Virus record (IMG/VR): IMGVR_UViG_3300036830_000184
Location: 7,877-71,876 of that record
Strand: one strand, 5' to 3'
Origin: a virus
Length of the DNA: 64,000 bases
The position numbers and the translations under genes are program-made. Of the stretch, positions 1 to 62,229 are shown piece by piece (positions within the stretch are counted from its first letter, which is position 1; every line of letters begins with the position of its first letter). The notes below the pieces were generated by a model that saw only the letters and a program-made list of their open reading frames with translations, ran no database searches and was not told where the DNA came from.

Positions 1-288
1 GGTGATCTGGCGGTAGCCGCCGCCATCCACCCGATCAATCGAGAGGGAGATGACCTGCGGCGAGCCGTCCGCGTAAGTAATATGCAACGTAATCAACTGC
101 CGTATTTGTTGCAGCCGCCACGACTCTGCCGCCTGCCGGTTGTCCCATTCGAGGGCCGAATAGAGTGCGGATGCCTTATGCGCCCGTGCCCATTCGAGCG
201 CTTCCCTTGGATACAAAATCTTGTCAGGCGACTGAGTTTGTAGCGCCAATAACTCTTCGCGGATCGTGTGTTGAAGCCTCGACGCCAC
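1..288 (-). CDS. Hypothetical protein downstream of the RAMP gene and array A1 (partial, runs off the window)
   Basis: Not in the ORF track because it has no stop inside the window. GTG at 288 follows AAGGGGAACAAA. My translation is VASRLQHTIREELLALQTQSPDKILYPREALEWARAHKASALYSALEWDNRQAAESWRLQQIRQLITLHITYADGSPQVISLSIDRVDGGGYRQIT, open for 96 codons. Confidence 0.75.
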   Translation of the reverse strand, partial: MASRLQHTIREELLALQTQSPDKILYPREALEWARAHKASALYSALEWDNRQAAESWRLQQIRQLITLHITYADGSPQVISLSIDRVDGGGYRQIT

Positions 289-303
289 TTTGTTCCCCTT
301 TGT

Positions 304-612
304 TGCCTGCCACGCCCCACCGAACCAGGTGATGCCCTGCCTACGTCACCCAACCTGCCATGCCATGCCGATCCGGGCCGGAAGCTGATTAGCCGCGCCA
401 AAGAAAGCGCCACCTGCCCAGCCCCCCTTACGGAGCGTAGCCGTGATGAACCATGGTTCGCCCGCGCCGCCTCGATATGCCAGGACAGTCCTCGCCTACG
501 TTGCCGTTGGGTGCCTGCCATGCCGCTCCAGGTTAGACGTTGCGACACCACGCCTGGCGTTGCCCGCCATGCCAGTATTTGCGGAGCGAGGAGACACCTC
601 GCCACGCCTGCC
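304..612 (-). repeat. Pentamer (GGY/CGY-NN) array A1, candidate guide-RNA array
   Basis: The minus strand parses as GGCA GGCGT GGCGA GGTGT CTCCT CGCTC CGCAA ATACT GGCAT | GGCG GGCAA CGCCA GGCGT GGTGT CGCAA CGTCT AACCT GGAGC GGCAT | GGCA GGCAC ... GGCCC GGATC GGCAT GGCAT | GGCA GGTTG GGTGA ... GGTTC GGTGG GGCGT | GGCA GGCAA. It starts 7 nt after the RAMP stop codon. Confidence 0.85.
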
Positions 613-619
613 AAAAGCC

Positions 620-1558
620 TCAGTATTTGAGCACCTTGAACTCGCCCCAGCCGCAGCCGGCGCTCATCTTGCTATCGGGCCGGCCCTCGCCGACGCCAAC
701 CTGCTGGCCCGCTCGTGCCAATAAGTTAACGACATCGTTCGCCGAGAACTGGTCGCCGTCCCACTTCAGGATCAGTTGCGCTTGCCAGCCATCGGCGAAC
801 ATCGGCCGGGCGCGCAGGTCAATGCCGCCGTTGGCGTTGCGGCCGGGGCGGATGTCGCAGCGCGGTTCGCCCTTGGTGATCCGGACCAGACCGGTGCCCT
901 GTTCATCGAAGCCATCGGCCATGACGAACAGCGACATTTTGGCGATTGTCATTTTGAAACCCACCGTGCGGCAAGCCGAAATCAGTGCGTTTCTGAAAGC
1001 AGACGCGGGAATGCCGTCCCAGCCTTCTATCGCTCGGTGTCTGGCGTTCTCATAGTTCTCGTCAAAGTCGCGGGCCTGGCGCGTCTTGCCCTTGCGGCTT
1101 TGGCTGCCGGCTTCCTGGGTTGCGCGGATGGTGTTCTGCACCTTCTGGCTGAACTTATGCAGCACCAAGGGGGTGGTTCCCTCGATCGTGACGCGGGCGA
1201 GCTCGAACTTCGGCGGTGAGATAGAGACGCGCGCTTGTGGCTTCGTTTTGTCGTCGGGATCGGTCAACCCAAGGTCGCGGAGATCGGACCGGATCTCGAC
1301 CGGGGGCCGGCGCTGGCCGGGGATCGGCGCTTTGACCCGCGCGATGATCTCTTGTTCATCCGGGGTAACCCGCCTCGCCGCCGGGCTACCGCGCCGCTTC
1401 GGCGGTAGATAGTCGGTATCGGGCTGCAAGGTCTCATCGACGGTGACGGCAACTACCTTCCGGGGCCGGCCGCGCTTCTTCGGCTGTTGGACCAATAGCG
1501 CGCCTTCGTCTGGGTGCTCGCCGCTTGAGTAAGAATTCCCACGTGATTTCACAGCCAT
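620..1558 (-). CDS. Stand-alone Cas7/RAMP-like protein with a disordered AT-hook N-terminal extension
   Basis: ATG at 1558 with SD AAGGGGAG (track ORF 620-1720). The C-terminal ~195 aa carry RAMP signatures: first strand ARVTIEGTTPLVLH, GIPASAFRNALISA (cf. IPGSSLKGALR), and terminal Gly-rich loop VGVGEGRP...GCGWGEFKV. The N-terminal part has KKRGRPRK. Confidence 0.8.
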   Translation of the reverse strand: MAVKSRGNSYSSGEHPDEGALLVQQPKKRGRPRKVVAVTVDETLQPDTDYLPPKRRGSPAARRVTPDEQEIIARVKAPIPGQRRPPVEIRSDLRDLGLTDPDDKTKPQARVSISPPKFELARVTIEGTTPLVLHKFSQKVQNTIRATQEAGSQSRKGKTRQARDFDENYENARHRAIEGWDGIPASAFRNALISACRTVGFKMTIAKMSLFVMADGFDEQGTGLVRITKGEPRCDIRPGRNANGGIDLRARPMFADGWQAQLILKWDGDQFSANDVVNLLARAGQQVGVGEGRPDSKMSAGCGWGEFKVLKY

Positions 1559-1672: not shown

Positions 1673-1870
1673 ATGCAAATACGCAAAAGTGAGAATGTTG
1701 TTATTCGGCTGCACAAACACGAGTTGGATGTCGTTGTTTTGGCGGCGGCGAGTAAATTCCTATCGCCAACAGCGTGGGTGCGGCATCTGGTTTTGTCGGA
1801 GAGTTTCAAAGTGAAGGAGGAGCTAACGGAAAAGGCAAAACGGACTGACGGTGTCCCTTTGGCATCGTGA
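1673..1870 (+). CDS. Small ribbon-helix-helix-like DNA-binding protein
   Basis: 65 aa with RKSENVVIRL (beta strand) then two helices (ELDVVVLAAA, SPTAWVRHLVL). Divergent from the RAMP gene across an AT-rich spacer. Confidence 0.6.
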   Translation: MQIRKSENVVIRLHKHELDVVVLAAASKFLSPTAWVRHLVLSESFKVKEELTEKAKRTDGVPLAS

Positions 1871-1882
1871 AGGCCCTCCATC

Positions 1883-2558
1883 GGCATGGCAGGTAGGGAC
1901 CGGCACCGTTCGCAACGAGTGATCGGCATGGCAGGCTCGGTTCCGATTTCAACTCACGGCAGGGTTTGAGTGGGCACCGCAGGTCGGGCGCCGGAGGTTT
2001 GGCGCCGGAGGAAAGGTTCGGCGGGCTTGGGTGTCGAGGTCTGGCTTCGACGGCGCGATAGGCTTGGCGGGCTAGGCATGGCCAGGGCGACGAGGCGCGG
2101 TGACTTAGGTTTGGCGGGCGAGGCAATTCGTGGCCTGGGTCGGTCGTGCATCGATAGGTGAGGTGAGGCAGGTGAGGGCGGCGTCCAAGGTAGGGCGTGC
2201 GCGGTGAAGCAACGCAGGCGAGGGGCACCAAGGCATCGCTCGATGACGATGGCCCCCTATGGCATGGCAGGCGAGGCATGGTCACGGCGACGAGGTGCGG
2301 TGACTCGGGTCTGGCAGGCGAGGCGCACTTGGCAGCGATGGTCCGACATGACGGGGCCGGCGGGGCACAGTGGGGATCGACGGGGCAACGCACCGAGAGG
2401 CGCGGCAGGCGAGGCGGAACAAGGTCGATACTGGCTTCTATCGGCTTGACTCGGCAGGCTCCCAAGAACGCGGCGGTCGGAGACAACCGGCCCGTCATGG
2501 CAGGCTAGGATTGGCACGGCCCGGCAACGCCAAACTTGGCGAGGCGTCGGGCTTACGG
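1883..2558 (+). repeat. Pentamer (GGY-NN) array A2
   Basis: Recurrent GGCATGGCAGG / GGCAGGC / GGCGGGC anchors every ~40-60 nt with 5-nt-phased GGY-NN units between them, e.g. GGTGA GGTGA GGCA GGTGA. Overlapping ORFs are Arg/Gly/Ala-rich shadows. Confidence 0.85.
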
Positions 2559-2559
2559 T

Positions 2560-2590
2560 GGCGGGGGATCTTCGGGTCTCTCGCCTTTCC
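2560..2590 (+). terminator. Hairpin/terminator closing array A2
   Basis: GGCGGGGGATC-TTCG-GGTCTCTCGCC followed by TTTCC: an 11-bp stem including G-U pairs and a C(UUCG)G tetraloop. Confidence 0.75.
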
Positions 2591-2658: not shown

Positions 2659-3570
2659 ATGTCGATCGGCCAGCGTTACTACACACCCAACCCATTCGAG
2701 ATCGACGCCAACGGCGTGCCACTCGCGTTTGCGCAGTTGTTCTTCTATGCAACCGGGACGAACACGCCGCAGGACACCTTCTCTGATGTCGGGTTGACGG
2801 TCGCCAACGCAAACCCGGTGCGTGCGGACGCCAACGGCCGGTTTGGCTCGATCTTTCTGGCCACAACCAACGGTTACGCGGTCTCATTGTGGACGGCGCC
2901 GACCACCGACAACCCCGGTGGGGTCCAGGTCTGGACGGAAGACCCGGTTGGCCCGGCGGCGGGTGGGGCGGTCAGCAATGTCGTCGGGATCATCGGCGAG
3001 ATCCGCCAGTTCGCCGGCATCGCGGCCTCGATCCCGAGCGGCTGGTATCAGTGCTATGGCCAGGCGGTCAGCCGCACAACCTACGCGGCAGCCTTCGCGG
3101 CGCTCGGCACAACCTGGGGCGCTGGCGATAGCTCGACCACGTTCAACCTGCCCGATCTACGCGGCCGGGTGACCGCTGGCCTCGACAACATGGGCGGTTC
3201 GGCGGCCGATCGGATCACCGCTGGGGTGTCGGGGATCGCCGGCACCACGCTTGGCGGGTCCGGTGGCGATCAGGCGCAGCAAGAGCACACCCACACCATC
3301 AATGATGGTGGGCACACCCATGCGCTTACCGATCCGGGGCACGTTCATACCGTCAATGTTGCCACCGCGGTGACGGGCGGATCGGCCGCGGGCCTATCGG
3401 CGACCGATGCGGCACCGGCCGTGGTGCCGTTCGGGGTCAACACCGCGACGACCGGGATCACTATCGCCTCGGCGACGACCGGGATCACGAACAGCAACAC
3501 CGGGGCCGGCGCGAGCCAGAACGTGCAGCCGACATCGATGGTCTACAGCATTATTTATCTAGGAGCGTAA
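2659..3570 (+). CDS. Tail fiber protein with tail-collar domain
   Basis: N-terminal DANGVPLA..LFFYATGTNTP..NPVRADANGR virion-attachment-type region, collar motif GEIRQFAG..PSGWYQCYGQAVSRTTYAA..FNLPDLRGR, and HTH/HVH repeats. Confidence 0.85.
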   Translation: MSIGQRYYTPNPFEIDANGVPLAFAQLFFYATGTNTPQDTFSDVGLTVANANPVRADANGRFGSIFLATTNGYAVSLWTAPTTDNPGGVQVWTEDPVGPAAGGAVSNVVGIIGEIRQFAGIAASIPSGWYQCYGQAVSRTTYAAAFAALGTTWGAGDSSTTFNLPDLRGRVTAGLDNMGGSAADRITAGVSGIAGTTLGGSGGDQAQQEHTHTINDGGHTHALTDPGHVHTVNVATAVTGGSAAGLSATDAAPAVVPFGVNTATTGITIASATTGITNSNTGAGASQNVQPTSMVYSIIYLGA

Positions 3571-14358: not shown

Positions 14359-15705
14359 TCCCGGCACGGCTGCGCAGGCAGTCCAACATCCAGGCGGGAA
14401 TACCCGCCGTCACGGCTGGTTTGAGGTGGATGGCGACCCGCGGCAACGCAAGGCCAGGGGTGGCGCTGCCGGTGTGGTCTATCTGTTAGTGGCTAGGCGC
14501 GATGGGCATGGCAGGTCACGCAGGGCAGGTGTGTTCCGGATTGGTCTTCGCTTTGCAACGCCAGGCTGATCGGGGCAACGCAGGCTGCCCGAGGCGAGGT
14601 TGAGCGAGGCACCGAGCGCCAGGCAGGTAAGGTGGGCGAGGCACCGCGCTGCGCATCGAGGTAAATCCTTGCGTGGCAGGCTATTCGAGGCACGTGCGGC
14701 TACGCCATCCGAGGCGTCGCTAGGTTAAGCGAGGCGGGTTTGGTTGGTGGGGCGGGGCTTCTCTGGGTTCGCTCGGCGGGTGCGGCGAGGATATCAGGGC
14801 TGCGTTGGGTTCGCTTGGCGGGTTTGGTGAGGATGACGGGGCTGCGTTGGCGGGGTAGCGATGGCCGGCATTGCTCGGAAAGTCATCGCACCGCTTATCT
14901 GGGCGTCGCAGGCTGGGTCGCTTTAGGCGCGAAGAGCTAGGGACGGCTAGGCACGGCAGGCGTGGATAGGCGTGATTGGCTTGGCAACGGAGGCAAGGCA
15001 GGCGTGGAACGGTTGGCTCTTCGTGGTTCCGGACGTGAGGTGTTTCATTTCGCGGTGAGGCAGGCTGATCGGACCGGGGCATCGTAGGCGTGGCGGGTGA
15101 CGTTGACCGTCGCGAGTTTGGGCGACGCATGGTGAGGCCGGGCAGGTCGGGTGTCGCGACCTTGCGATGGAAAGGACTGGTTTGGCAGGTCCGGCAACGT
15201 TGGCAACGCCTCGTAGGCTAGGCAGGTTCGGTTGGTGGCGTGGGCAACGCAGCGACCGTAGGTTATGGCGGGCGAGGCAGGGTGTCGCTTCTCCTGTCCA
15301 GGCCGGAAAGGCAGGCTAGGCATGGCCGAATTTGGCCGGGCTTCACTGGGTTTGGCTGGGCCGGCAACGTTGGCGTCTCAACGCTGGGTCAGGCATGGCT
15401 CGCAGGCTAATCGGCACTTCGGTGCCCAATACCCACGAGGGATCAACCCTCGGTCACGGCAGGCACGGCCACGCGACTCCGCTTCTGGCCAGTCAAGGTG
15501 AGGCAGGCGTGGTTTGGATGGCAGCGCCACGCTCCGCAAGGAACGGCAGGCAGGGCATCGCAACGCGCTTCGGGGTAAGGATCTGGCCAGGCAGGCAATC
15601 GGCACTTCGGTGCCCAACACCCATGAGGGGATCAACCCTCAGTCACGGCAGGCAAGGCGTGGCAGGGGCGGCGACGCGTTTCGCGGCCTGAACTGGCCCG
15701 GCTAG
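14323..15705 (+). repeat. Pentamer (GGY-NN) array A3, the largest (~1.4 kb)
   Basis: More than 20 GGCAGG/GGCGGG/CGCAGG anchors at ~40-60 nt spacing with 5-nt-phased units, e.g. GGCTA GGCAC GGCA GGCGT GGATA GGCGT. No credible CDS. One more unit lies upstream at 14082-14134. Confidence 0.85.
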
Positions 15706-18043: not shown

Positions 18044-18343
18044 AAAGCGCACGCTCCCCGAAAAGTGAGGCGCATAGCGCAAAGCCAGGACAACCGCCAG
18101 TGAAAGGGTGGGAAAGTTACGCTACCGCCGCCGAAGAGGCCAAATTCACTCAGGCATGGGAGAGGACTCGGCCTTGCCTTCGGCGGCGACAGGTGCCCAC
18201 CATCAGGAGCGGGGTGATCGGACCGTGAAATCCGATAACCAAGCCATCGTTTCGACTGCACCGAAAGAGGCTTAATGGTTGACGAAAAACGTATAGACCA
18301 TTCTGAAGTCCCGCAAGTCCCCGCGAAGTCACGGGTGGTTTAG

Positions 18344-36124: not shown

Positions 36125-36864
36125 TCGCCTAGCCAACCAAGAGCCGCCTGCGTTGCCGTTCCTGGCGAAGAGACACCAAACCAGTCCGTGCCTGCGTTGC
36201 AACGCCCGGCCTAGTTCCGCCACCCCGAGCCAGTCCACGCCTGCCAAGAGATACCTCGCCAGTCGACCCAACCTTAATCGGCCTGCCGAGCGACGCCCTG
36301 CCAATCTTACGTTGCCCTACCTGCCGAGCGGCGCCCCACCCCGCCGGGCCATTTCAACCTTGGTCTGCCTAGCCTGCCGCGCGAGCCGGACCTAGCCGAG
36401 AGTATCCGAGCCAACCTTGCCTGCCGAGCCCTAGTCAACCTAACGCGCCATCGACCCCGAACCTAACCTGCCGGGCCAAGATCCACCCATCACGCCGGGC
36501 CATCGTGGCCATCGTGGCCAAACCTGCCACCGCCGCCACTCCCCGCCACTCTCACGATACGAGTCGGGCCATCCAGGCGAAGCCTGCCCAATCATGCCGC
36601 ACCGACCCAAATGCGCGATGCTCTACGTCGCCACGCCTGCCGGGCCAGGATCTGCGGTGCCAAGCGGGTGTCACCTCACCATTCGACGCGACGCCTGCGG
36701 GACCGATCCGCGATCTGATTGGCCAGAACGATCCGCCCGCTCCCAGCCTGCCTCACCCTGATCGACGCGGCCTCGCGAAACCACCGAAACCGCCAATGCC
36801 AAACCTGCCGCGCGGTGGGCTGCGACGCCCCTGAAGCGTTGCTGATCCTGCCTTTCCATGACGC
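36125..36864 (-). repeat. Pentamer (GGY-NN) array A4
   Basis: CCTGC(C/G) anchors (GCAGG on minus) at 36147, 36191, 36240, 36282, 36320, 36373, 36420, 36467, 36523, 36583, 36636, 36694, 36747, 36804 and 36847, spaced 38-60 nt. Hairpin GGCGAGG..CCTCGCC at ~36109-36129. Confidence 0.85.
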
Positions 36865-36893
36865 CCGCCGTCTCGCGAGGGGAGGCGGTATCG

Positions 36894-36899
36894 AGTATA
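36894..36899 (-). promoter_or_regulatory. Candidate -10 box for array A4
   Basis: TATACT on the minus strand ~40 nt upstream of the first anchor; the -35 element is weak. Confidence 0.4.
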
Positions 36900-37450
36900 A
36901 GATGTCTTATGGCGGACCCAAATCACAGCCTACTGATCGTTGTTCGAGGCAGCCGCCGCGAGGTGGTCACCCGTCCCGGTCATCTCGACATTAAGACCGC
37001 GATGGGATTGGCGGCCCGAGCCGGCGGCACGCTGCATGTGCTGCGCCACCACCGCACGCTGCCGGAGGCCGGTCAGGTCGAGGTTGTCCGCATCCAGGCG
37101 ATTGAGACGGTATGAAGCAGCAGCCGAAGCCCAAGGTTCGTAAGACCATGGAGGCTTTGGCTGTTCTGGCGGATGCGCGGTTCGCCGGTCATGTGCAGAT
37201 CCGCAAGGGGCCGGATGGCTGGAACGTCTACTTTGCGGCACCGACCGCTTTGCAGAGTGATCGGGGCGACGCTCCGCTTGCGAGCTTCACGGCGGCGGCC
37301 AACCGGGCGATGGTCCGGGTGGGGCACGATCCGGTTGGGTCGGATGGGAAAAAGTAACCCGGCGATCGGGTTATAGCGTCCGGCTTGGTTTCTCAGTAGT
37401 CTGCCCCCAGGCCGGAGCGGTCAATTTTCCTTCTGCAAAAGAGGCGACCC

Positions 37451-47965: not shown

Positions 47966-48874
47966 ATGGCCGTTATTACCACGGGGTCACATCCTAAGGC
48001 ACTTTGGCCGGGTATTCGCGCGTGGTGGGGCAGAAGTTACGATGAACACGTGCCAGAATACCCGGATCTATTCGAGACGGATACTTCGGACAAGGCTTAC
48101 GAAGAGGAAGTCGAAATCACCGGGTTCGGCCTGGCGCCGGTCAAGCCGCAGGGGTCGCAGATTTTCTACGACACCGAAGTGCAAGGCCCGGTCAGCCGCT
48201 ACACGCACGTGGCGTATGCCCTCGGGTATATCGTTACCTACGAAGAATTAAGAGACGATCTCTATGAGGTGGTCTCCAAGCGACGTGCCCAGCAGTTGGC
48301 GTTCTCGATGCGCCAGACCAAGGAAAACGTCCTGGCGGCGATCTACAACCAGGGCTTCAATAGCTCCTTCCCCGGCGCCGATGGCGTGGCCCTGTTCTCG
48401 GCCTCGCATCCGACCCTCTCCGGCAACCAGTCGAACTTGCTGACCGTGGCTGCGGATTTGTCGGAAATCGCGGTCGAAGACCTCTGCATTCAAATAATGC
48501 AAACCACAAACAACCGTGGCATGAAGATCAGCGCGCTGCCACAGTCGCTTCATCTGCCGCCGCAGCAGTGGTTCGAGGGTAATCGCATCCTTCATTCTGT
48601 GTTGCAGAGTGATACCGCGAACAACAACATTAACGTGTTGCGCGCCACTGGTGCCTTCCCCAAGGGTATCAAAGTCAACCATTACTTCTCGTCAGGGACG
48701 GCGTGGTTCATTCGGACCAACATCCCGCGTTCGATCCAGTATTTCGAGCGCGATCGGATCAGTTTTGATCAGGATAACGACTTCGATACTAAGAACGCCA
48801 AGGCGGCTTGCTATGAGCGGTATTCCGCTTACTGGTCGGATTGGCGCGGAGCCTACGGGACGCCTGGGGTTTAA
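47966..48874 (+). CDS. Major capsid protein
   Basis: Strong SD AGGAG; 302 aa; SDKAYEEEVEITGFGLAP..YALGYIVT.E..DGVALFSASHP..DFDTKNAK..ERYS..DWRG.YG. Confidence 0.9.
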   Translation: MAVITTGSHPKALWPGIRAWWGRSYDEHVPEYPDLFETDTSDKAYEEEVEITGFGLAPVKPQGSQIFYDTEVQGPVSRYTHVAYALGYIVTYEELRDDLYEVVSKRRAQQLAFSMRQTKENVLAAIYNQGFNSSFPGADGVALFSASHPTLSGNQSNLLTVAADLSEIAVEDLCIQIMQTTNNRGMKISALPQSLHLPPQQWFEGNRILHSVLQSDTANNNINVLRATGAFPKGIKVNHYFSSGTAWFIRTNIPRSIQYFERDRISFDQDNDFDTKNAKAACYERYSAYWSDWRGAYGTPGV

Positions 48875-48888
48875 CTCCGGCTGTATTG

Positions 48889-48921
48889 AAAAAGGGGCGG
48901 TGGGAGTGATCCCAGCCGCCC
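48889..48921 (-). terminator. Rho-independent terminator (minus strand)
   Basis: Minus strand GGGCGGCTGGGA-TCAC-TCCCACCGCCCC then TTTTT, convergent with the capsid gene end. Confidence 0.75.
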
Positions 48922-48922
48922 T

Positions 48923-48977
48923 TCCCCTTGCGTCTCCCGGCCAGACCTCTCGTCGCCTAGCCGTGCCACGCCATGCC
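48923..48977 (-). repeat. Single pentamer unit A5 after the lysozyme gene
   Basis: GGCAT GGCGT GGCAC GGCTA GGCGA CGAGA GGTCT GGCCG GGAGA CGCAA GGGGA: 11 in-phase units followed by the terminator. Confidence 0.8.
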
Positions 48978-48990
48978 GCCAGCAGTCTGC

Positions 48991-49470
48991 TTAGGCTTCC
49001 TCGGTGGCGTCAACCGCCGGTGCCACGCCATACTGCATGATGTTCATGCACCGGCCGGCGCGGGCTGGGGTCTCCTTGAACCATAGCGAGGCCCGCCCGG
49101 CAGCCGCGGCGGCGATGTAGTCTTTGCGCTCGATGGCGGCGATCATGTCGTGGAAATCGAGCAGCCCCTGCAAACCGAGTTGGTGGCGCATGTTGACGAC
49201 AGCGCGCTGGCGGATGTCATCCAGGCCGACGAACCACGGTCGCGGCGATAGCTCGCGCTCGTAGCGGTTTAGGTCATTGTCAGCGAGCGCGTAGCTTTCC
49301 GCCGAGGACAGCCCGCCGGGCCAATCCAGCCGCCGGCCGATGCCGATGGTGGGGTAGCCGATCAGGGTTGAGCCTTTGGTGATCGGCTTGCCGGTCGCGT
49401 CGTCATAGACCTGCGGCTCTAGCTTCTCGTCCCGGACAAGCTCGCGCGTCATAGCTTCGCGGTCGAACAT
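48991..49470 (-). CDS. Lysozyme/endolysin (T4-like, GH24)
   Basis: LVRDEK..VYDDATG..GYPTIGIGR..RQRAVVNM..SLWFKETPARA. Confidence 0.85.
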   Translation of the reverse strand: MFDREAMTRELVRDEKLEPQVYDDATGKPITKGSTLIGYPTIGIGRRLDWPGGLSSAESYALADNDLNRYERELSPRPWFVGLDDIRQRAVVNMRHQLGLQGLLDFHDMIAAIERKDYIAAAAAGRASLWFKETPARAGRCMNIMQYGVAPAVDATEEA

Positions 49471-49499
49471 CTCGGCTCCTGCAAGGTGGCCGGATAATC

Positions 49500-49780
49500 C
49501 TGCGCCACCTTGCCGAGTCGCACCGAGCCAGTGACTCGGAGCCTAGAGATGCTACGCGTTGCCCGCCGAGCGATGCGGCTCGTTGAGGCACGAAGCACAC
49601 CTTGCCTAGCCTGCCCTGCCTTAGCCGGCCCTGCCGGACCCACCTGGAGCCGCCGGGATGTGCCTGCCCTACCAGTCGTACGGAGCCGTGAAGTGCTCCG
49701 ATGCGCGTTACCTGCCGCGCACAGCAGTGCCGAGTGATGCGAAGGTCCGCCGACGAAGCGATCCTTGCCTGCCATGCCAT
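49500..49780 (-). repeat. Pentamer array A6 upstream of the lysozyme gene
   Basis: Minus strand: hairpin GTCCC..GGGAC, then GGCAT GGCA GGCAA GGATC..., with ~5 segments delimited by GGCAGG/GGCGGG. Confidence 0.8.
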
Positions 49781-49842
49781 TGTCCCGCCGATAGGGACGG
49801 TCTAAAGCCTATGGCCGCCCACCAATCGGGGAAAATCAATTT

Positions 49843-53201: not shown

Positions 53202-54110
53202 TTGGCACACCGCTATTGGCGGGTGTGGATCACCCAAAGCCAGACCAACGGCATCGCCTCGATCGCCGAAATCACCATGGCCGCGTCCTATGGCGGACCC
53301 AATCAGATCGGCTCGGGCACAGCTTCCGCATCCGGCGTCTACTCATCCCCGGCCAACGATCCCGGCAAAGCCTGTGACGGCGACACCGCGACCTGTTGGG
53401 CGGTTGTCCAGAATTGGGCATCCTCCGCGCCGTCATGGTGGGAATACGACTTCGGCTCGGGGAACGATGTCGGGGTCCTGGAACTGAAGATCACCGCCCA
53501 AAGCGGCAGCGCCGACTTCGCGCCCTACACCCTCACCCAATTCCTGCTGCAATATTCCGACGACGACGCCACCTGGATCACCGAGGCCGGCTTTACCAGC
53601 CAAACCGCCTGGACGGCCGGATCGCAGCAGACCTTTCAGGTGCCGGTGGCAGCAGTGGGCTCGGCGCACCGCTACTGGCGCTACGATATGTATTCGAACG
53701 CCGCCACCAATACCGCGGCGATCTCCGAAACCACGATGGCATCCACCAAGGGCGGCAGCAGTCTGTTCGGTGGTGGCACGCCCTACGCTTCCAGCGCGGC
53801 CAATCCCGCCGGCAATGCCTGTGATGGCAATATCGCGACGTTCTGGGCAGCCAACAACGGCTTCTTCCCCGCGTGGTGGGCCTACGATTTCGGCTCCGGT
53901 GTGAAGGTGGTCGAAGCCACCATGGCTCTCAACACCGGCATCACCAACAACGGCCCGACGACCTTCTCGATCGACTACAGCGACGACAACGTTGCGTGGC
54001 TTCCGGCCGGCTCGTTCACCGCCTCGGCCTACGTCGGCACCGTCGTGCAGACCTTCGATCTATCGGTCCCGTCGACCGGGCAAAAATTCCTCTCCTGCGG
54101 GATGATCTGA
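53202..54110 (+). CDS. Tandem discoidin/F5-8-like carbohydrate-binding protein
   Basis: Two repeats of AHRYWR..E.TMA..ACDG..T.WA..WW.YDFGSG..YSDD..W. TTG start. Confidence 0.72.
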   Translation: MAHRYWRVWITQSQTNGIASIAEITMAASYGGPNQIGSGTASASGVYSSPANDPGKACDGDTATCWAVVQNWASSAPSWWEYDFGSGNDVGVLELKITAQSGSADFAPYTLTQFLLQYSDDDATWITEAGFTSQTAWTAGSQQTFQVPVAAVGSAHRYWRYDMYSNAATNTAAISETTMASTKGGSSLFGGGTPYASSAANPAGNACDGNIATFWAANNGFFPAWWAYDFGSGVKVVEATMALNTGITNNGPTTFSIDYSDDNVAWLPAGSFTASAYVGTVVQTFDLSVPSTGQKFLSCGMI

Positions 54111-55117
54111 TGGCAGTTTTAACTACCAGCGGTAGCTACACCTTCAGCCAAAGCGCCGTGGAGATCATCACCGCCGCGCTGCGGATTTGCCAGGTTGTGA
54201 ACGAGGAAGAAACCCCAACCGGGGCACAACTGACCAACGCGCTCGCCGCGCTCAATGCGATGACAAAGGGTTGGCAGGTCTCCGGCATCCACCTGTGGGC
54301 CGAGGAAGAGGCGATCCTGTTCCCGCAGCCGAACCAACCGCTCTATTATATCGGGAGCGGCAGCACCGACCACGCGACGCTTTATTCCTCGCTGGCGATG
54401 ACCACCTTGGCGAGCACCGCGCTGGCCGCCGCGACCACGCTGGTTTTGGAGTCAGCCAGCGGCTTCGTGGTCGGCAACACTATCGGGGTCCAACTCGACT
54501 CCGGCAGCAACTTTTGGACAACCATCACCACGGTGAGCGGAACCACGATCGGTCTTACCGCCCCCCTGCCCAGCCAGGCGACGGCGGGCACGACCCAGAT
54601 GATCTTCAGCTATGACGTGCCATTGGTCCGGCCGCTCCGCGTCTATACGGGCCGGCGGTTTATCTACAACAGCAGGATCGAGAACCCGATGATCATGCTG
54701 TCCCGGACCGATTACCAGAACCTGCCGAACAAATTCAATCAGGGGACGATAACCCAATTCTTCTTCGACCCTCAGACGGGAACAAGCCAGGGCGCCTACA
54801 CCGCCCCCCTCGCGCAGGCCAACCTCTGGCCCTCCCCGATCGACAACCAATCGGGCTTCCGGTTCACGGCCCAACGCCCGCTGCAAGACTTCGCAAACTT
54901 GGCCAACTTGCCGGACTTGCCGGTCGAATGGTCCGTCGCGTTGAAGTGGAACCTGGCCCAAGAGATCGGTCCGGAGCTATCGACGCCGATGGATCAGATG
55001 ACCTTGATCGGGAAAATGGCGGGAACTTGGTTCGAACGCATCCAGCAATGGGATCGGGAACCCGAGGCCGTGCTATTTGGGGTTGCACACGAGCCGGGCT
55101 ACCACACCGGCGTGTAG
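54110..55117 (+). CDS. Head-tail adaptor (P22 gp4-like) with inserted beta module
   Basis: EIITAALR..ALNAM..W..SRTDYQNLPNK..LWPSP..DLPVEW..ALKWNLA. Confidence 0.7.
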   Translation: MAVLTTSGSYTFSQSAVEIITAALRICQVVNEEETPTGAQLTNALAALNAMTKGWQVSGIHLWAEEEAILFPQPNQPLYYIGSGSTDHATLYSSLAMTTLASTALAAATTLVLESASGFVVGNTIGVQLDSGSNFWTTITTVSGTTIGLTAPLPSQATAGTTQMIFSYDVPLVRPLRVYTGRRFIYNSRIENPMIMLSRTDYQNLPNKFNQGTITQFFFDPQTGTSQGAYTAPLAQANLWPSPIDNQSGFRFTAQRPLQDFANLANLPDLPVEWSVALKWNLAQEIGPELSTPMDQMTLIGKMAGTWFERIQQWDREPEAVLFGVAHEPGYHTGV

Positions 55118-55135
55118 TCGGCCTATGGTTTGCTC

Positions 55136-55248
55136 GTCCTTTTAGGACATTGGCATGGTGTGGCAGGCTTGGCGGGGCGTCGCGCGGTTTCGCGAGGCCC
55201 GGTGGGGCTAGAACCACAAGGCGGCGGATCGGGCAACCCTTCCGCCGC
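55136..55248 (+). ncRNA. Putative single-unit pentamer small RNA A7
   Basis: 5' hairpin GTCCT-TTT-AGGAC; GGCAT GGTGT GGCA GGCTT GGCGG GGCGT CGCGC GGTTT CGCGA GGCCC GGTGG GGCTA; 3' hairpin GCGGCGGA..GG-GCAA-CC..TCCGCCGC. Confidence 0.65.
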
Positions 55249-55312
55249 ATTGCCAGCCTAAGCTATAGAGAGAGCAGGCCCAGCAGCGCCCACACCCCAG
55301 GATGGCGGCGCT

Positions 55313-56824
55313 ATGGCAGAACTTCAATTCGCTGGTCAGGCATATCAAGCTCGCTCGACCCAGCTTATCGCCCAGCAGTGCATCAACGCCTTCGTTGAGA
55401 CCTCGCCGAAAGAGGCGAAAAGCCAAGTTCCGATCTACGGCACGCCGGGCCTCTCGGTCTTTGCCAGGTGCGGCAAGGGTCCGGTCCAGGGCTTATGGAT
55501 CATGGGGAGCCTGCTTTACGTCCTTTCGGGCGGCGCGCTCTACTCGGTCACCCCCACCGGCACGGCCACCCTGATCGGGCAGACCAACTTGGGCGGCGTG
55601 TGCGTCCTCGCCGACAACGGCCAGCAACTCGTCATGGTCGATGGCTTCGCGGGCTGGGTGTATCAGCCCGGTGGCCTCAACCAAGTCACCACGCAAACGG
55701 TCGCACCGGTCAACCAAGTGCAGATGACCGTGGGCGGCACGATTACCAACGCCGACACCATCTCGATCACCGCGACCTCCGGGAGCATCAGCGGCAGCCC
55801 GCAGACCGTGACAGTCACCGTCACCGGGGCAGACGACACCACCACCCTTGCCGCAGCGCTCGCCGCCGCGATCAACGCCAACACCCACATCATCGGCGTC
55901 GGCGTGAAAGCCACCTCGGCTCTTGCGGTAGTCACCCTGCAATGGCCCACCACCATCGGGATCGCGTGGCTCCCGGCGGTCTCCTCCGGGGCAAGCGAGT
56001 CGTTGACGGCCGGCGCGACCGGCTTGGGCGGCGGGACCGTGATCCCGGCCAACATCACCGGCACGATCACCTCCGGCGACACGCTGCAAATCCCGCTCGA
56101 TAACGGGAGCACCTTCACCACCACGGCCGCCTCGACCGTCACCGCGGCGGACACGGCCATCATTCTGACGGACGGCGTGCCGTCCCAGGTTAGCGCCGGG
56201 GCCACGATCAAGGATAGCAGCACCACCCTGGCGCAGATCCTGGCGCCTGCGTTCAAGCCGCCTTGCTACGTCTGTTTCATGGATGGGTATTTCGTCTTTG
56301 CCGCGACCAACACCCGGCAATTCTTCCTATCGGCGATCAACGACGGCACCCAATACAGCGGCTTGGACTTCGCCACCGCGACCGCCAACACGGGCTTTGT
56401 CCTGGCTGTTCTCAACTTTCACGAGCAACTTCTGATTTTTACCAGCAAGCCTTGCACCGAGGTTTGGTATGACAGCGGGGCGTCGGCCTTCCCGTTCCAG
56501 CGCTACGATGGCGTGTATATCCAGCGCGGACTCTCTAATTCGTTGGCGGTCGCGAGCGAGGATAACACCTGTTTTTGGCTCGGCGACGACGGGATTTTTT
56601 ACCGGAACAACGGCTTCCTACCGGAAAGGATTAGCACTTTCGCGATGGAGCACGCTTGGGCGCAGTATCCGCAGAAGTATTTCGACTGCATCGCCTTCGT
56701 GCTTGACCAAGAGGGCCACAAGTTTTTGGTGTGCAACTTCATCTCGGGACAAGCGACCTGGGTTTTTGACCTGAGCACAAAATTGTGGCACCAGCGACAG
56801 TCCTACGGGAGCCCTTGGGTATGA
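55313..56824 (+). CDS. P22 gp10-like tail hub/DNA stabilization protein, N-terminal part
   Basis: YQARS..CIN..GTPGL..DNGQQL..FMDGYFVF..TEVWYDSG..FWLGDDG..ISTFAMEH..EGHKF..TWVFDLSTKLWHQR. Stops before the usual C-terminal region. Confidence 0.8.
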   Translation: MAELQFAGQAYQARSTQLIAQQCINAFVETSPKEAKSQVPIYGTPGLSVFARCGKGPVQGLWIMGSLLYVLSGGALYSVTPTGTATLIGQTNLGGVCVLADNGQQLVMVDGFAGWVYQPGGLNQVTTQTVAPVNQVQMTVGGTITNADTISITATSGSISGSPQTVTVTVTGADDTTTLAAALAAAINANTHIIGVGVKATSALAVVTLQWPTTIGIAWLPAVSSGASESLTAGATGLGGGTVIPANITGTITSGDTLQIPLDNGSTFTTTAASTVTAADTAIILTDGVPSQVSAGATIKDSSTTLAQILAPAFKPPCYVCFMDGYFVFAATNTRQFFLSAINDGTQYSGLDFATATANTGFVLAVLNFHEQLLIFTSKPCTEVWYDSGASAFPFQRYDGVYIQRGLSNSLAVASEDNTCFWLGDDGIFYRNNGFLPERISTFAMEHAWAQYPQKYFDCIAFVLDQEGHKFLVCNFISGQATWVFDLSTKLWHQRQSYGSPWV

Positions 56825-56929
56825 CCGTAGGATGGCGTGGTGTGGCAGGTAAGGCACCGTGGGCTTGGTTGAGCATCGCGGGGCGAGGCTGCCGCAAAGG
56901 ACGCGGATGGGGCGACCTGTCCGCTGTCC
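56801..56929 (+). ncRNA. Putative single-unit pentamer small RNA A8
   Basis: 5' stem TCCTACGG/CCGTAGGA; GGCGT GGTGT GGCA GGTAA GGCAC CGTG GGCTT GGTTG AGCAT CGCGG GGCGA GGCTG; 3' hairpin with GCGA loop. Confidence 0.6.
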
Positions 56930-56949
56930 GTTCGCGCTAAGGTAGCGCC

Positions 56950-58614
56950 ATGGCCGACCTAGCCGGGCAGATTGCCCAAGTAATTATTCCCAGCGACAGC
57001 ACCGGCAACCCGTCGATGGTGCTCGTTGACTGGCCGAACACCAACCTGTGGTTGCTCGGGAGCGGCGGGCAGCGGATCTACACCGTCGCGCTCGCGACCC
57101 AGAACCCGGTCCTCTCGGTGGTGGGCTCCCCGAACGTCGGCAACGCACCGCTCGCCGCCGGCTGCGACGCGGCGGGCAACTGTCTGTGGCAAGGTGGGTC
57201 GACCAACAGCCAGACGGTCTACCGGCTCGATCCGACAACCTTGGAGTCGACCGCAAGCCACGGCAGCAACAATTCCTCGCTCGGCAACTACCCCGTCGAT
57301 ATCGAGGGCAGCGAGTCGATCTGCTGCATCACCACGGGCGGTGTGGCCTACGCCCTGTGCAAGTCATCGATCAGCGCCAATTGCAACATCCTGCGCACCG
57401 ACGACATGACGGCGGCCGGGGCCTCAATCGTGGTCTCCGGCGCGTTTCGTGGCCACTCGTGGATGGTTCCCGGCTACACCGGGACCTCGATCGCGACGGC
57501 CTACTTCATCGATAAGACCCTCTCGGGCGCGCAAGCCTCGGTCGGCGTTTACACGATCGCCATCACCTCGGGAGCCAAAGACTACAACATCGCCACGTGG
57601 CCGACCCCCAACCCCGACATCAACGGCAGTCAGATCGGGAGCCTGTCCGCCGCCGGGATCGATGCCAGCCTCAGCACGATCACCACCAACGGCATCGGCT
57701 TTGACAGCCACGCCGGGATCATCGTCGCCGACGTGAACGGCAACACCGGCGTGCGCTATCTGGTCGGTCTCAGCCGAACCACGGCCGCGATCATCTGGCG
57801 CCTGGCGCTGCCGGATGTGAACTGGCCGATCGACCTCACGCAATGCCGGATCGCCTCCAGCAACCTGCCATACCTCAATTCCTCCATCACCATCGCGCCG
57901 ATCCTGGGGATACAGACCGCCAGCGGCGCGGACACCGCCAACACCGTCACCGGGGTCGGGGCCGGCGATCTCGGCTTCAACACCTATACCGACGATCAGT
58001 CGCAACTCATGGTTTGCGACGCCTTCTTCTCGGGCTCGGGGCAGGTCACTCCGGTCTCGGGCTCGGCTTCCAGCTTCGCCGGTCTGGCGATCCTCTCGGT
58101 CTGGCCACCCTTCCCACCAGCACCACCACCCACCCCGGTTATCGGACCCGGCACCATCAGCGGCCCGCTCGGCGGCTGGCGCGGGATCGTCGGCATCAAC
58201 TGGCAAGGATTGGCTCTTCTCGGCGATGCCTGGGCCGGGATCGTCGGGCTCTCGGACTTCGATGCCTTCACGGAATACGGCAACCCAATGGTCATGCTGG
58301 TGACCTCGCCGCCGATCCAGAATGACCGCAAGCGGATTTTCATCCGAAAGTTCGAACTCGACATCCAAGCCGCGACGGCGGACCTCGACACACCGGACCC
58401 GCAACTCAACCTGGATTATTCGCGCGATGGCGGAATGACCTGGAAGCCGCTGCTTATCCGCCGTTCGATGGGCCAAATCGGCCAATACACCAAACGGTTG
58501 CGGTGGCTGAACCTCGGCGAGTCACGCGCTTGGGTGTTGCGGATTACGATAAGTGATCCCGTTAGGCGAACGATCATCGGCGCCTATGTTGACCTGGCCG
58601 CAGGGATCGGCTGA
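56950..58614 (+). CDS. Beta-rich domain fused to a gp10-like C-terminal domain
   Basis: After a PPFPPAPPP linker: LLGD..FELDIQ..PQLNLDYSRDGGMTW..SMGQIGQYTKRLRWLNLG..ITISDPV. Confidence 0.75.
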   Translation: MADLAGQIAQVIIPSDSTGNPSMVLVDWPNTNLWLLGSGGQRIYTVALATQNPVLSVVGSPNVGNAPLAAGCDAAGNCLWQGGSTNSQTVYRLDPTTLESTASHGSNNSSLGNYPVDIEGSESICCITTGGVAYALCKSSISANCNILRTDDMTAAGASIVVSGAFRGHSWMVPGYTGTSIATAYFIDKTLSGAQASVGVYTIAITSGAKDYNIATWPTPNPDINGSQIGSLSAAGIDASLSTITTNGIGFDSHAGIIVADVNGNTGVRYLVGLSRTTAAIIWRLALPDVNWPIDLTQCRIASSNLPYLNSSITIAPILGIQTASGADTANTVTGVGAGDLGFNTYTDDQSQLMVCDAFFSGSGQVTPVSGSASSFAGLAILSVWPPFPPAPPPTPVIGPGTISGPLGGWRGIVGINWQGLALLGDAWAGIVGLSDFDAFTEYGNPMVMLVTSPPIQNDRKRIFIRKFELDIQAATADLDTPDPQLNLDYSRDGGMTWKPLLIRRSMGQIGQYTKRLRWLNLGESRAWVLRITISDPVRRTIIGAYVDLAAGIG

Positions 58615-58720
58615 TGATCCGATCGGCGTGGCGGTTCATGGTAACGCTGGGCTTTGCGGGGCAGCGTGCCCCCTGGCGTCGAAGAACCGATGAGCACGGG
58701 GCGGGGAGACTCGCTCCGTG
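58605..58720 (+). ncRNA. Putative single-unit pentamer small RNA A9
   Basis: 5' stem GATCGG/CCGATC; GGCGT GGCGG TTCAT GGTAA CGCTG GGCTT TGCGG GGCAG CGTGC CCCCT GGCGT CGAAG; 3' hairpin CACGGGGCGGG-GAGA-CTCGCTCCGTG. Confidence 0.6.
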
Positions 58721-60841: not shown

Positions 60842-61122
60842 CCTTCACCTATTCGCTCACCGATATCCCAACCACGATCCAGCGCTCGGACGGCACGATG
60901 ATCCCGACCGATCCAGGCAATGTCGACTATGCCGCCTTCCTCGAATGGGTCGCCGAGGGCAACACGCCGACACCCTATAAGGCTCCTCCCCCACCCGTTG
61001 CGCCGGTGATCGCCGATAGTGCAGCCTCGCTTTTGCGCGCCCAAGCGACCCGCCTTGCCGCCAAGGGCCGCACCGCCGATGCGCTGGCCGCGACCCTCAA
61101 ATTGATAGGGAACCCCCCATGA
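60838..61122 (+). CDS. Small tail-fiber-associated protein
   Basis: IPTDPGNVDYAAFLEWVAEGNTP. Confidence 0.7.
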   Translation: MTFTYSLTDIPTTIQRSDGTMIPTDPGNVDYAAFLEWVAEGNTPTPYKAPPPPVAPVIADSAASLLRAQATRLAAKGRTADALAATLKLIGNPP

Positions 61123-61439
61123 CTTCCGTGATCATCTCCAACACGCCGCCGTTCGGGGCGCTGACCAATCAAGCCGTCGCCGATCTATTCACGGTCAATC
61201 AGGCGATCGTGCGCCTGCAAGCCGCGGTAGCTTCGGCCGCGAGCGGTTACGCCGGCACCGCCGGCACCGAGTATGAGGGCAATGGCACCAACTTTGGCGT
61301 CGTCGCGTCCAGCGATCCGGGCGCGCAAGGGGCGGCCTACTCCTTCGCCCTGCTCACCCTCGCCAATGCCTGGACAACCTTTTGGAATGCCGCTCTGGCC
61401 TCGATCGAGGAACTAGACAATGGCGTCATTTCGCCCTGA
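61119..61439 (+). CDS. Hypothetical protein
   Basis: 106 aa, ATGA-coupled to the upstream gene. Confidence 0.6.
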   Translation: MTSVIISNTPPFGALTNQAVADLFTVNQAIVRLQAAVASAASGYAGTAGTEYEGNGTNFGVVASSDPGAQGAAYSFALLTLANAWTTFWNAALASIEELDNGVISP

Positions 61440-61534
61440 CGAAATTCTGATTTTCCAGGAAGCATTTTACCACCGTAAGGTCTCTGCGGCGCGGCTGCTC
61501 TCGGTTGTCTCCGCGGTTCTGGGTGTCGAGAGAA

Positions 61535-61795
61535 CGGCACGGCTGATCTCGGCAGGCTTGGCTTCCCCACGCTTATCATGGTTTCGCGTCGCAGCGCGCA
61601 CAGCCCCACGGCTCGGCAGGCACGGCGGACAGGGGCGGGGAACGCACTGTGAGGCGCGGCTTGGCAGGCAGGGCATAGTAGGGCTCGGCTTCTCTAGGCT
61701 GGACTTGGCGGGCGAAAACGTCTTAGGATCGGTTTGTTCCAGTTGAGATGTTGAGGGCGGTTGGGCGGCGGTAGGGGAGACCTTGCCGCCGTTTT
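61535..61795 (+). repeat. Pentamer array A10 with terminator
   Basis: Anchors GGCAGG at 61551, 61615 and 61663 and GGCGGG at 61707; ends in CGGCGGTAGG-GGAGA-CCTTGCCGCCG-TTTT. Confidence 0.78.
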
Positions 61796-61887
61796 CAATG
61801 CAGCCGATTGCGCGAGAGGCGTCTGAGACGGTAGGTTGTGCCGGGGCCTAGCAGCGCTCCGCACCTCGCCGGAGACGCGCTGCATCA

Positions 61888-62229
61888 ATGACCACCTCTC
61901 CCAGTTTGCAAATCGTCAGTTCCCAGCAACTTACGAACGCGGCGGCCACGCTCTACACGTCGCCGGTCGCAACCTGGACGCGCATCGAAAAGGTGACCCT
62001 CTATAACAGCGATAGCGCGAGCCACACCTATTCGATCTATCTGGTGCCGGCCGGGAGCACTGCCGGGGTCACCAATCTGCTTGTGTCGGCGCAGCGGATC
62101 GCCGCCGGGGCCAGCCTCTCGGACTTCAACATCCCCGGCAACTACCTGAACCCTGGCGATTTTATCGCCGCGTTCGCCGACACCGGCGCCAAGGTCGTCA
62201 TTACGATCGGGGGCACCCAGTTTTCCTAA
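61888..62229 (+). CDS. Small virion structural protein
   Basis: TLYTSP..TRIEKVTLYN..LNPGDFIAAFAD. Confidence 0.65.
   Translation: MTTSPSLQIVSSQQLTNAAATLYTSPVATWTRIEKVTLYNSDSASHTYSIYLVPAGSTAGVTNLLVSAQRIAAGASLSDFNIPGNYLNPGDFIAAFADTGAKVVITIGGTQFS

Follow-up and report, generated by a model that had tools for sequence, protein, structure and literature searches.

Unit A7 of an uncultured phage genome as a probable wobble-skipping guide of a distant VIPR system directed at related phages

Introduction

The closest described relatives of the element studied here belong to VIPR (Viral Interference Programmable Repeat), which its preprint describes from Escherichia phage SUSP1 and, as type II, from a Pseudomonas fulva prophage (10.64898/2026.04.26.720920). 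As set out there, the system comprises Vipr, a protein of ~20 kDa with a minimal RAMP fold, an accessory vap gene, and VIPR RNAs (vrRNAs) built of 9-16 YNNGG repeats with a conserved GGY, a hypervariable NN and a structured 3' tail. According to the same preprint, the NN bases were shown experimentally to read double-stranded DNA (dsDNA) with one base skipped per unit, usually the codon wobble position; the system works without a protospacer adjacent motif and targets competing phages, satellites and prophages; and no self-targets at ≥80% NN match are reported (10.64898/2026.04.26.720920). A second preprint describes the SUSP1 structure, a filament with one protomer per repeat in which the thumb and the G-loop hold GGY, with residues R138, D177 and R179 in contact with it, and in which a gapped RNA-DNA hybrid lies within a triplex (10.64898/2026.04.26.720927). 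A third describes solo (orphan) vrRNAs in satellites and in VIPR-null SUSP1-like phages (10.64898/2026.10.15.759431). In this work, we analyze unit A7 (55152..55262), a short array in which GGY-type triplets alternate with variable dinucleotides (NN), in a 64,000-nucleotide stretch of the IMG/VR virus record IMGVR_UViG_3300036830_000184 (positions 7,877 to 71,876), a single contig of 71,876 bp rated complete by CheckV. This 64-kb stretch is hereafter called the window, and its numbering is used unless stated otherwise.

An initial annotation had proposed that the triplets of such units are constrained and that their dinucleotides spell a target, read either contiguously or with a skipped base that could fall on codon wobble positions; it reached the VIPR code from raw sequence alone. 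The comparisons reported below support this interpretation of an NN code with a skipped wobble base. We assign a probability of about 0.88 to the reading that A7 is the guide region of a VIPR RNA whose NN string spells a 1-nt-skip site in a structural gene of related phages. Judged by its sequence, the phage appears to be a new, distant member of VIPR, the mechanism of which is already laid out in the 2026 preprints.

Results

Unit A7 and its cognate site in an adaptor gene

The unit, the gene upstream of it and the site within that gene are as follows.

55166..55210, plus strand: A7 guide region of a solo vrRNA (direct reading; 9/9 conforming triplets by the array caller)
55152..55165, plus strand: A7 5' motif, GGCAT GGTGT GGCA, common to unit B (GGCGT GGTGT GGCA, 56834-56847)
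55211..55262, plus strand: A7 3' tail with hairpin GGCGGCGGA...TCCGCCGC (alignment and fold)
54110..55117, plus strand: adaptor-like structural gene (phrog_12985; weak match to head-tail adaptor Ad3)
55076..55101, plus strand: the phage's own near-cognate A7 site, last adaptor codons F G V A H E P G Y, 16/18

Direct reading of 55166-55210 gave the same letters as the initial annotation, namely nine pentamers (GGCTT GGCGG GGCGT CGCGC GGTTT CGCGA GGCCC GGTGG GGCTA) whose triplets are GGY in 7/9 and CGC in 2/9 cases and whose NN string is TT GG GT GC TT GA CC GG TA. The span originally noted (55152..55210) has to be divided: the pentamer run stands for 55166-55210, whereas 55152-55165 is a separate 5' motif, probably a handle or unit boundary, in which a 4-nt GGCA unit shifts the register. 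A7 sits in the 195-nt gap between the adaptor-like gene and the first of two genes resembling P22 gp10 (gp10-like; 55313-56824). A sister unit B, with an A7-like 5' motif and hairpin, occupies the next intergenic gap (56834-56945), and the fold z-scores of the whole units A7 and B were -3.2 and -4.1. The tail hairpin of B is homologous to that of A7 with the stem altered on both sides; with two copies only, covariation support is thin.

The A7 NN string, read as TTNGGNGTNGCNTTNGANCCNGGNTA (NNx, a 1-nt skip), was compared with five related phage contigs (G001-G005, 252 kb). It matched at 18/18 positions, with 0 mismatches, at G001:3833-3858, in a relative of 70.9 kb, and with 2 and 3 mismatches in two other relatives; the backwards control gave two matches at ≤3 mismatches, one in each of the remaining two relatives. 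The G001 site consists of the last nine codons of the adaptor orthologue (TTC GGC GTG GCG TTC GAG CCG GGC TA, encoding F G V A F E P G Y); the NN pairs fill the first two positions of the codons, and the skipped base is the third. The best scores in the five relatives were 18/18 for a skip of 1 nt against 14/18, 15/18 and 14/18 for skips of 0, 2 and 3 nt, and 500 shuffles of the NN order at the 1-nt skip reached at most 16/18. In a gapped search over 0-3 nt compared with shuffled strings, skip 1 alone beat the shuffles; of the two readings first envisaged, the one with a skipped base was supported and the contiguous one, with its best score of 14/18, was not. The proposed 2+1 register over wobble positions also held, as all orthologous matches, 4 in adaptor genes and 62 in capsid genes (described below for unit A5), are in codon phase.

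Wider searches returned the same site. In all of IMG/VR, the A7 pattern had one exact match, the G001 adaptor site; to give the scale, the exact scan for another 18-base guide pattern (the last guide of array I2, hereafter I2-last) likewise gave one match, in an unrelated contig. A metagenome collection held 12 exact A7 matches, 3 of which lie at the same site of adaptor orthologues (67-71% amino-acid identity over 215 residues), each with different wobble bases; the other 9 were unrelated background. Bacterial genomes contained 8 matches, 0 of them in adaptor orthologues. The phage's own adaptor gene carries a near-cognate site 65 nt upstream of the guide, where both mismatches fall in one NN, CA (His) versus TT (Phe).

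With respect to the surroundings of A7, relative G001 (stretch L001, 3650-3960) has an extra gene between the adaptor and gp10-like genes at the place of A7, and these two genes abut directly in L004-L008. By gene order, the adaptor/gp10-like junction would therefore be an insertion hotspot. Relatives L001-L010, which were collected through the gp10-like protein (58-66% amino-acid identity), have no arrays at the equivalent gene junctions, and the "islands" flagged in L004-L008 were rejected as coding false positives. A blastn search with 54110-58614 against named phages gave no match.

Unit A5 and the major capsid gene

A second unit, A5, had been singled out together with A7.

48928..48977, minus strand: A5 guide region of a solo vrRNA, 10 pentamers, 7 of them GGY
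48889..48927, minus strand: A5 tail, a G+C-rich hairpin followed by TTTTT (sequence reading)
47966..48874, plus strand: major capsid protein gene; its orthologues in other phages carry the A5 target
48230..48259, plus strand: own near-cognate A5 site (I V T Y E E L R D D, in phase, 17/20) within the major capsid gene

The A5 string given in the initial annotation occurs at a single place, minus-strand positions 48928-48974, with 0 mismatches (mean of 100 shuffles, 0), and its NN string is AT GT AC TA GA GA CT CG GA AA. The unit starts 13 nt past the stop codon of the minus-strand gene 48991-49470, and its tail hairpin, which differs from that of A7 and B, looks by its sequence like an intrinsic terminator.

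Read with a 1-nt skip, A5 scored 16-18/20 in the capsid orthologues of all five relatives and in the phage's own capsid gene, against best scores anywhere of 14 for skip 0 and 15 for skip 2; 300 shuffles reached at most 17. The exact 20-base pattern had 62 matches in IMG/VR, and 62/62 lie at one site of capsid orthologues, in codon phase, where the motif reads I V T Y E E L R D N. These orthologues share 50-88% amino-acid identity (median 62%), and the 62 sites amount to 55 distinct 30-mers with variation at every wobble position. Reversed-order and 2-nt-skip versions of the pattern gave 0 matches each versus these 62, in line with the specificity for a single skipped base. This one 10-unit guide spans 55 nucleotide versions of one capsid motif, which illustrates how far a single guide can reach.

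The phage's own site differs from the guide by three scattered single-base mismatches: its Leu and Arg are TTA and AGA and not CTN and CGN, so that codon position 1 is changed, and an Asn is replaced by Asp. Both codons are rare in this 63% GC genome (TTA, 12/755 Leu; AGA, 20/577 Arg; counted in 28 open reading frames), and the sole TTA of the capsid gene adjoins one of its two AGA precisely at the A5 site, which looks like selection to avoid the guide. At the Leu-Arg codons (48248-48253), where the phage has TTA AGA, the relatives have CTT CGC, TTG CGG, CTG AGG and, in two of them, TTG AGA. The fact that the relatives vary at exactly these two capsid codons suggests, on sequence evidence, that kin phages are still engaged in an arms race in which core structural genes are at stake. 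Leu-Arg codon-family switches keep the amino acids there and are the only synonymous changes visible to a guide that skips the wobble base.

Guides beside the phage's own alleles

Three further guides could be mapped to sites in the phage's own genome.

56848..56896, plus strand: B guide region of a solo vrRNA, NN AA AC TG TT TG AT GG GA TG CA, with one 4-nt unit
56897-56945, plus strand: B tail hairpin
56564..56593, plus strand: own near-cognate B site (N T C F W L G D D G, in phase) within the P22 gp10-like gene upstream of B
58625..58669, plus strand: C guide region of a solo vrRNA, 9 units, NN GT GG AT AA TG TT GG AG GC
58189..58215, plus strand: own near-cognate C site (V G I N W Q G L A, in phase, 14/18) within gene 56950-58614, upstream of C
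2503..2547, plus strand: I2-last, the last guide of array I2, NN TA TT AC CC AA CA TT GA GT
2677..2703, plus strand: own near-cognate I2-last site, codons 7-15 of the downstream tail-collar gene, in phase, 14/16 (15/18 with the ninth unit)

Guide B matches its own site at 15/16 positions over the first 8 units and 15/20 over 10, and the orthologous sites at 13-14/20 over 10; guide C reaches 16/18 at the orthologous G001 site. One family profile matches the genes on either side of B: positions 119-327 of phrog_578 ("head closure Hc3", P22 gp10-like) match 55313-56824 and positions 332-469 match 56950-58614, so that this family appears to be split over two genes with vrRNA B between them. In relative L001, the first gp10-like gene ends in a stop, followed by a gap of ~210 nt and a new ATG. 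The logic found for A7 would hold for at least one other guide, A5 with its capsid target, and less strongly for B, C and I2-last.

The five mapped guides (5/5: A7, A5, B, C and I2-last) lie 65 to ~700 nt from a cognate site in the phage's own genome. Own-genome matches of ≥14/16, counted for windows in the true register, fell within 2 kb of the array in 4/6 cases at skip 1, and in 0/4, 0/8 and 0/7 cases at skips 0, 2 and 3. In a local-alignment scan (5 nt to 3 nt) of all arrays against the own genome, with a noise floor of 13-15, only the I2 guide against position 2701 stood out, with a score of 16.5; masking hid the A7 site. All five guides carry sense-strand sequence and would therefore pair with the template DNA strand and not with mRNA.

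This proximity bears on a different function, autoregulation, in which the solo vrRNAs would act mainly on the phage's own late genes, timing or tuning the expression of capsid, adaptor, head-closure and tail proteins, and rivals would not be the main target; it is not exclusive of interference with other phages. The own sites match 85-94% of the NN positions, above the 80% threshold of the preprints, every guide lies within 0.7 kb of its own-genome site, and matches near their array occurred at skip 1 and at none of the other skips, all of which agrees with autoregulation. The perfect matches, by contrast, are always foreign alleles (62 contigs for A5 and 4 for A7), and the own alleles differ at exactly the positions read by the guides, in the capsid gene by means of the side-by-side rare codons TTA and AGA. 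We consider autoregulation as the main function unlikely, and interference with related phages remains our preferred explanation of the five guides.

Arrays across the genome

The genome encodes a terminase, an SU10-like portal, the major capsid protein, the adaptor-like protein, two P22 gp10-like "head closure" genes and a tail fibre. Across it, we observed nine strand-specific noncoding islands of ~120 nt to 1.2 kb in which GGC recurs at a spacing of 4-5 nt and its multiples. In a spacing histogram of the 8 islands within the window, GGC-GGC distances peaked at 4-5, 9-10, 14-15, 19-20 and 24-25 nt and were near zero in between. Counting consecutive GGC in all 9 islands, one of which lies just upstream of the window, gave 52 spacings of 4 nt, 83 of 5, 32 of 9 and 41 of 10, with 9, 5 and 9 at the off-period distances of 6, 7 and 8 nt; the whole genome showed only the period 3 of coding sequence. 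The island scan flagged two further short stretches beyond these nine. The long islands consist of runs of 6-12 pentamers separated by 4-nt units, 39/52 of which are GGCA. An array caller that demands ≥7 units and ≥75% [GC]G[CT] triplets returned 18 arrays in the 71.9-kb genome. The NN strings differ across units, and the periodicity is far above chance. The principal arrays are the following.

261..624, minus strand: array I1, in the gap from vipr to the vap-like gene; its guides are 6-11 units long, with 4-nt GGCA-type separators
1860..2564, plus strand: array I2, oriented away from vipr and forming part of the tail-collar gene's leader
14474..15700, plus strand: array I3, 1.2 kb, apparently its own transcription unit, ending at a hairpin at ~15715-15750
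36141..36854, minus strand: array I4
49490..49794, minus strand: array I5, upstream of the lysozyme-like gene 48991-49470 (minus strand)
61440..61887, plus strand: array I8, between genes 61119-61439 and 61888-62229

The islands are rich in GGCA, with its complement TGCC almost absent, and their orientation tracks that of the flanking genes; from this agreement in orientation, the sequence points to a feature acting at the RNA level. A look through sequencing runs listed no RNA run for this sequence, which speaks neither for nor against expression, and 4 DNA runs with small shares (0.06-0.16). Searches for known RNA elements came back empty: Rfam at the gathering threshold gave 0 matches, with no hammerhead-interspersed architecture detected at that threshold, a tRNA scan gave 0, and repeat and tandem-repeat scans found no CRISPR-type array of identical direct repeats with unique spacers.

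An RNA-level feature could also be a platform for protein binding that guides nothing, either a TRAP-like ring or filament site or two-tier G-quadruplexes in leaders. TRAP sites, as in the Bacillus trp leader, have conserved triplets with short variable spacers and one triplet per subunit; nothing is encoded in these spacers, TRAP falls outside the RAMP proteins, and no DNA is targeted through its sites. The conserved triplets with 1-2 nt spacers, the strandedness that follows transcription and the G-rich, C-poor sequence all fit such a platform, which was our initial hypothesis. It was dropped on the strength of the literature and the target matches: codon-phase matches at one skip length only and the linkage to a RAMP-fold protein are left unexplained by it, and we hold it to be very improbable. 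The possibility that the arrays are translated low-complexity repeats, a 5-nt period appearing as a pentapeptide period of 15 nt, or simply chance, is scarcely credible. Spurious open reading frames do overlap the arrays, and an array in Mycobacterium phage Donkeykong is annotated as two hypothetical proteins; against this stand the frequent TAG codons and register slips, a putative start codon that is not conserved between the modules of another array (L060, below), and periodicity statistics that rule out chance.

More weight can be given to decay. Many of the arrays might be remnants of vrRNAs that are no longer bound or used, so that target matches would reflect past function; many units are not GGY, the register often slips at 4-nt units, and the five relatives offer no match for the majority of guides in the long islands. 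On the other side, the vipr gene is intact and yields a high-confidence structural model, A7 and A5 keep a clean register and match targets of the present day perfectly, and functional vrRNAs are often internally degenerate according to the VIPR preprint (10.64898/2026.04.26.720920). We regard the arrays as quite unlikely to be relics. Strict runs of at least four YNNGG numbered 5, against a mean of 0.38 in 50 shuffles; the number is this small because the units are degenerate.

Guides within the long arrays have no evident 3' tail. Between the end of I3 and the end of the minus-strand gene 15803-18082, which encodes a glycosyl hydrolase family 5 domain, lies a long G+C-rich hairpin (15715-15750) that looks by its sequence like a bidirectional terminator; I3 would therefore be a 1.2-kb noncoding transcription unit of its own. 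I3 also contains, on the plus strand, a two-hairpin module (GGCAC-ttcg-GTGCC and GAGGG-atcaa-CCCTC) in copies at 15385-15460 and 15585-15650, 189 nt apart, the second stem of which is changed on both sides between the copies and whose sequence is unlike the A7 and B tails. This module may be a vrRNA tail or a processing signal.

The Vipr protein and its locus

The protein that would bind these RNAs is encoded near the start of the window, next to arrays I1 and I2.

620..1558, minus strand: vipr gene, 312 amino acids, a basic N-terminal part of ~120 residues and a RAMP-like C-terminal part of ~190 (phrog_4652)
1..288, minus strand: 5' part of a vap-like accessory gene (phrog_15946), whose full open reading frame spans genome positions 7559-8164, past the start of the window
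11714-12376, minus strand: GcrA-like cell-cycle regulator with an N-terminal helix-turn-helix (Pfam PF07750, E 1.2e-21)

The genome holds one copy of Vipr, the single match to the family profile (E 1.2e-97). The protein has no Pfam match, and its C-terminal 190 residues match phrog_4652 end to end. One search placed 3109 proteins in the family at E≤1e-3, and another counted 2118 clusters at 50% identity. When profile A1 (95 members) was compared with PDB sequences, it matched 36pp_D, "SUSP1 Vipr protein", with E 8.5e-06, over the segment from the thumb Arg to the G-loop. The AlphaFold2 model had a predicted local distance difference test score (pLDDT) of 96.3 and a predicted template-modelling score (pTM) of 0.89. 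In a Foldseek comparison with a copy of the PDB older than 36pp, 45 matches had E≤1e-3, with template-modelling (TM) scores of 0.32-0.53, and those listed were all CRISPR Csm3/Csm, Cmr, type VII Cas7 or Cas6 chains. Judging from this model, Vipr would be a minimal RAMP related to Cas7.

Of the residues aligned with those that contact GGY in SUSP1, R132 (~SUSP1 R138) is Arg in 93/95 aligned sequences, E172 (~D177) is Glu in 69/95 and R174 (~R179) is Arg in 95/95. The neighbouring G173, which aligns with SUSP1 W178, is Gly in 95/95. The basic N-terminal extension of ~120 residues contains an AT-hook-like KKRGRPRK. Most homologues have 215-250 amino acids, with just 20-50 extra residues, and a few of 316-334 amino acids share the long form; the extension may represent a DNA-binding accessory fused to Vipr.

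On the minus strand, the order is vipr, array I1, the vap-like gene and array I0, with the divergent I2 on the opposite flank of vipr. The gene that follows vipr and an array in Cyanophage Cy-LDV1, Gordonia phage ODay and Mycobacterium phage Donkeykong is conserved among the three (E ~1e-18), and the vap-like gene is its homologue at an equivalent position. A Vipr homologue was not found in the relatives G001-G005 (best tblastn E 3.8), although a few short candidate islands were flagged in G001, G004 and G005. The GcrA-like family is typical of Alphaproteobacteria and their phages, and the gene hints at a possible alphaproteobacterial host.

Related arrays in other phages

Similar arrays are widespread. 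A 17-letter repeat pattern matched at least 122 IMG/VR stretches, 74 of which contain extended period-5 islands, in contigs of GC content 0.42 to 0.76. Among 122 loci found by the DNA pattern alone, 37 encode a Vipr homologue within 1.5-kb flanks, and many of the 122 are at most ~600 bases long in all and could not have shown one. GGC-NN arrays directly adjoin Vipr homologues in Cy-LDV1, ODay and Donkeykong, and a Vipr homologue is present in 27 mycobacteriophage records and 5 Gordonia phage records.

Some of these loci deserve description in their own right. In Donkeykong (L135 3460-3800, record 36870-37256 region), a clean GGC-NN array of ~340 nt lies upstream of the Vipr homologue gp49, with units separated by GGCAGGCACGACATGGCAGGC; it is annotated as coding, as the "hypothetical protein" genes gp47 and gp48. 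A 1.7-kb array in a 158,651-bp IMG/VR contig (L060 340-2059, minus strand) is composed of six (GGCNN)n modules of 200-250 nt, separated by a conserved ~38-nt separator with a small hairpin (CATCC/GGATG), and its would-be start triplet varies by module (ATG, TTG, GTG, GCG, ACG, ACG). In another (L054 1250-1590), GGT is as frequent as GGC, the fetched 3-kb stretch has a GC content of 0.42, and the array runs directly into the ribosome-binding site and ATG of the next gene.

Discussion

By homology with SUSP1, Vipr would polymerise along the vrRNA with one protomer per pentamer, each protomer holding a GGY triplet and presenting the NN pair, and the NN pairs would base-pair with dsDNA with every third base skipped. 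By computation, the A7 string equals the sense strand of the last adaptor codons in the relatives with the wobble base skipped. The most likely function, as far as sequence can tell, would be to silence transcription in relatives that co-infect or are already resident, while the phage's own allele escapes.

Several observations weigh against this explanation. (i) The own sites match at 16/18 (A7, 89%) and 17/20 (A5, 85%), above the 80% target threshold of the preprints, and so does the own B site over the first 8 units (15/16). (ii) Among the guides of the long arrays, most have no target, and with the true register in the five relatives, A7 alone reached ≥15/16. (iii) The exact IMG/VR scan for guide B (8 units, 16 bases) gave 32 matches, 0 of them in gp10 orthologues, and that for I2-last gave its 1 match in an unrelated low-GC contig. 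By our estimate, a pattern that fixes 16 bases would find about 32 matches by chance alone in a database as large as IMG/VR. (iv) Degeneracy is greater here than in the published type II vrRNAs, as CGC or other triplets occur and 4-nt units are frequent. (v) The sequence match to SUSP1 Vipr is limited to ~47 residues.

As regards the first point, self-immunity is assumed here to result from one mismatched NN in A7, or from three scattered single mismatches in A5. It is tempting to speculate, and we would put the odds at about even, that the solo vrRNAs are linked pairs of a guide and an immune allele of the capsid, adaptor, two head-closure-like and tail-collar genes, such that recombination moves weapon and antidote together, with escape from the own guide by one amino-acid change or by a Leu/Arg codon-family switch. 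Such pairs may be likened to poison-antidote or greenbeard loci. Solo guides beside the phage's own resistant alleles of core structural genes, with kin phages as targets, are not described in the main text of the VIPR preprint (10.64898/2026.04.26.720920). If true, this arrangement would be a new route of autoimmunity avoidance in VIPR phages, and guide and immunity might spread together. More generally, the natural-target evidence from an uncultured phage with a distant Vipr clade extends the reading rule past the Escherichia and Pseudomonas systems.

Compared with the described VIPR systems, the locus shares (i) a phage-encoded RAMP-fold protein with a thumb Arg and a G-loop Arg, whose gene is flanked by GGY/NN arrays, (ii) a small accessory gene beside vipr, (iii) guides of 9-10 units with a candidate hairpin tail, and (iv) a 1-nt skip on the wobble position with other phages as targets. 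It differs in that the protein is distant from SUSP1 Vipr, with Gly in place of W178 and a basic N-terminal extension of ~120 amino acids, and in that its arrays show more degeneracy and are interrupted by 4-nt GGCA units, a layout that is possibly the "staggered" architecture of the preprint (fig. S18). Furthermore, roughly a dozen arrays plus solo guides (18 caller matches) are spread over the genome here, several of them inside the structural operon, and the guides are directed at core structural genes, orthologous ones in kin phages, not at satellites or lysogeny regulators. The main departure is the presence of own near-cognate sites above 80%, of which the preprint reports none in the published systems.

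The solo vrRNAs of the third preprint are likewise single vrRNAs away from a vipr gene, and in the guides that target vrRNAs, as that preprint presents them, self-match scores are lower than the matches to rival phages, which avoids autoimmunity (10.64898/2026.10.15.759431). Here, in contrast, the carrier is VIPR-positive, the targets are structural genes and each guide stands beside its own resistant copy. With the backbone of class 1 CRISPR-Cas systems (Cas7/Csm3), the system has in common the RAMP fold, the top Foldseek matches being type III Csm chains, as well as one protomer per fixed guide length and periodic bases left unpaired; it differs by the lack of repeat-spacer arrays and cas genes, by noncontiguous guide information and by its period, 5 nt with 3 sequestered against 6 nt with 1 flipped. 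Unlike in TRAP-type sites, the spacers here are the code.

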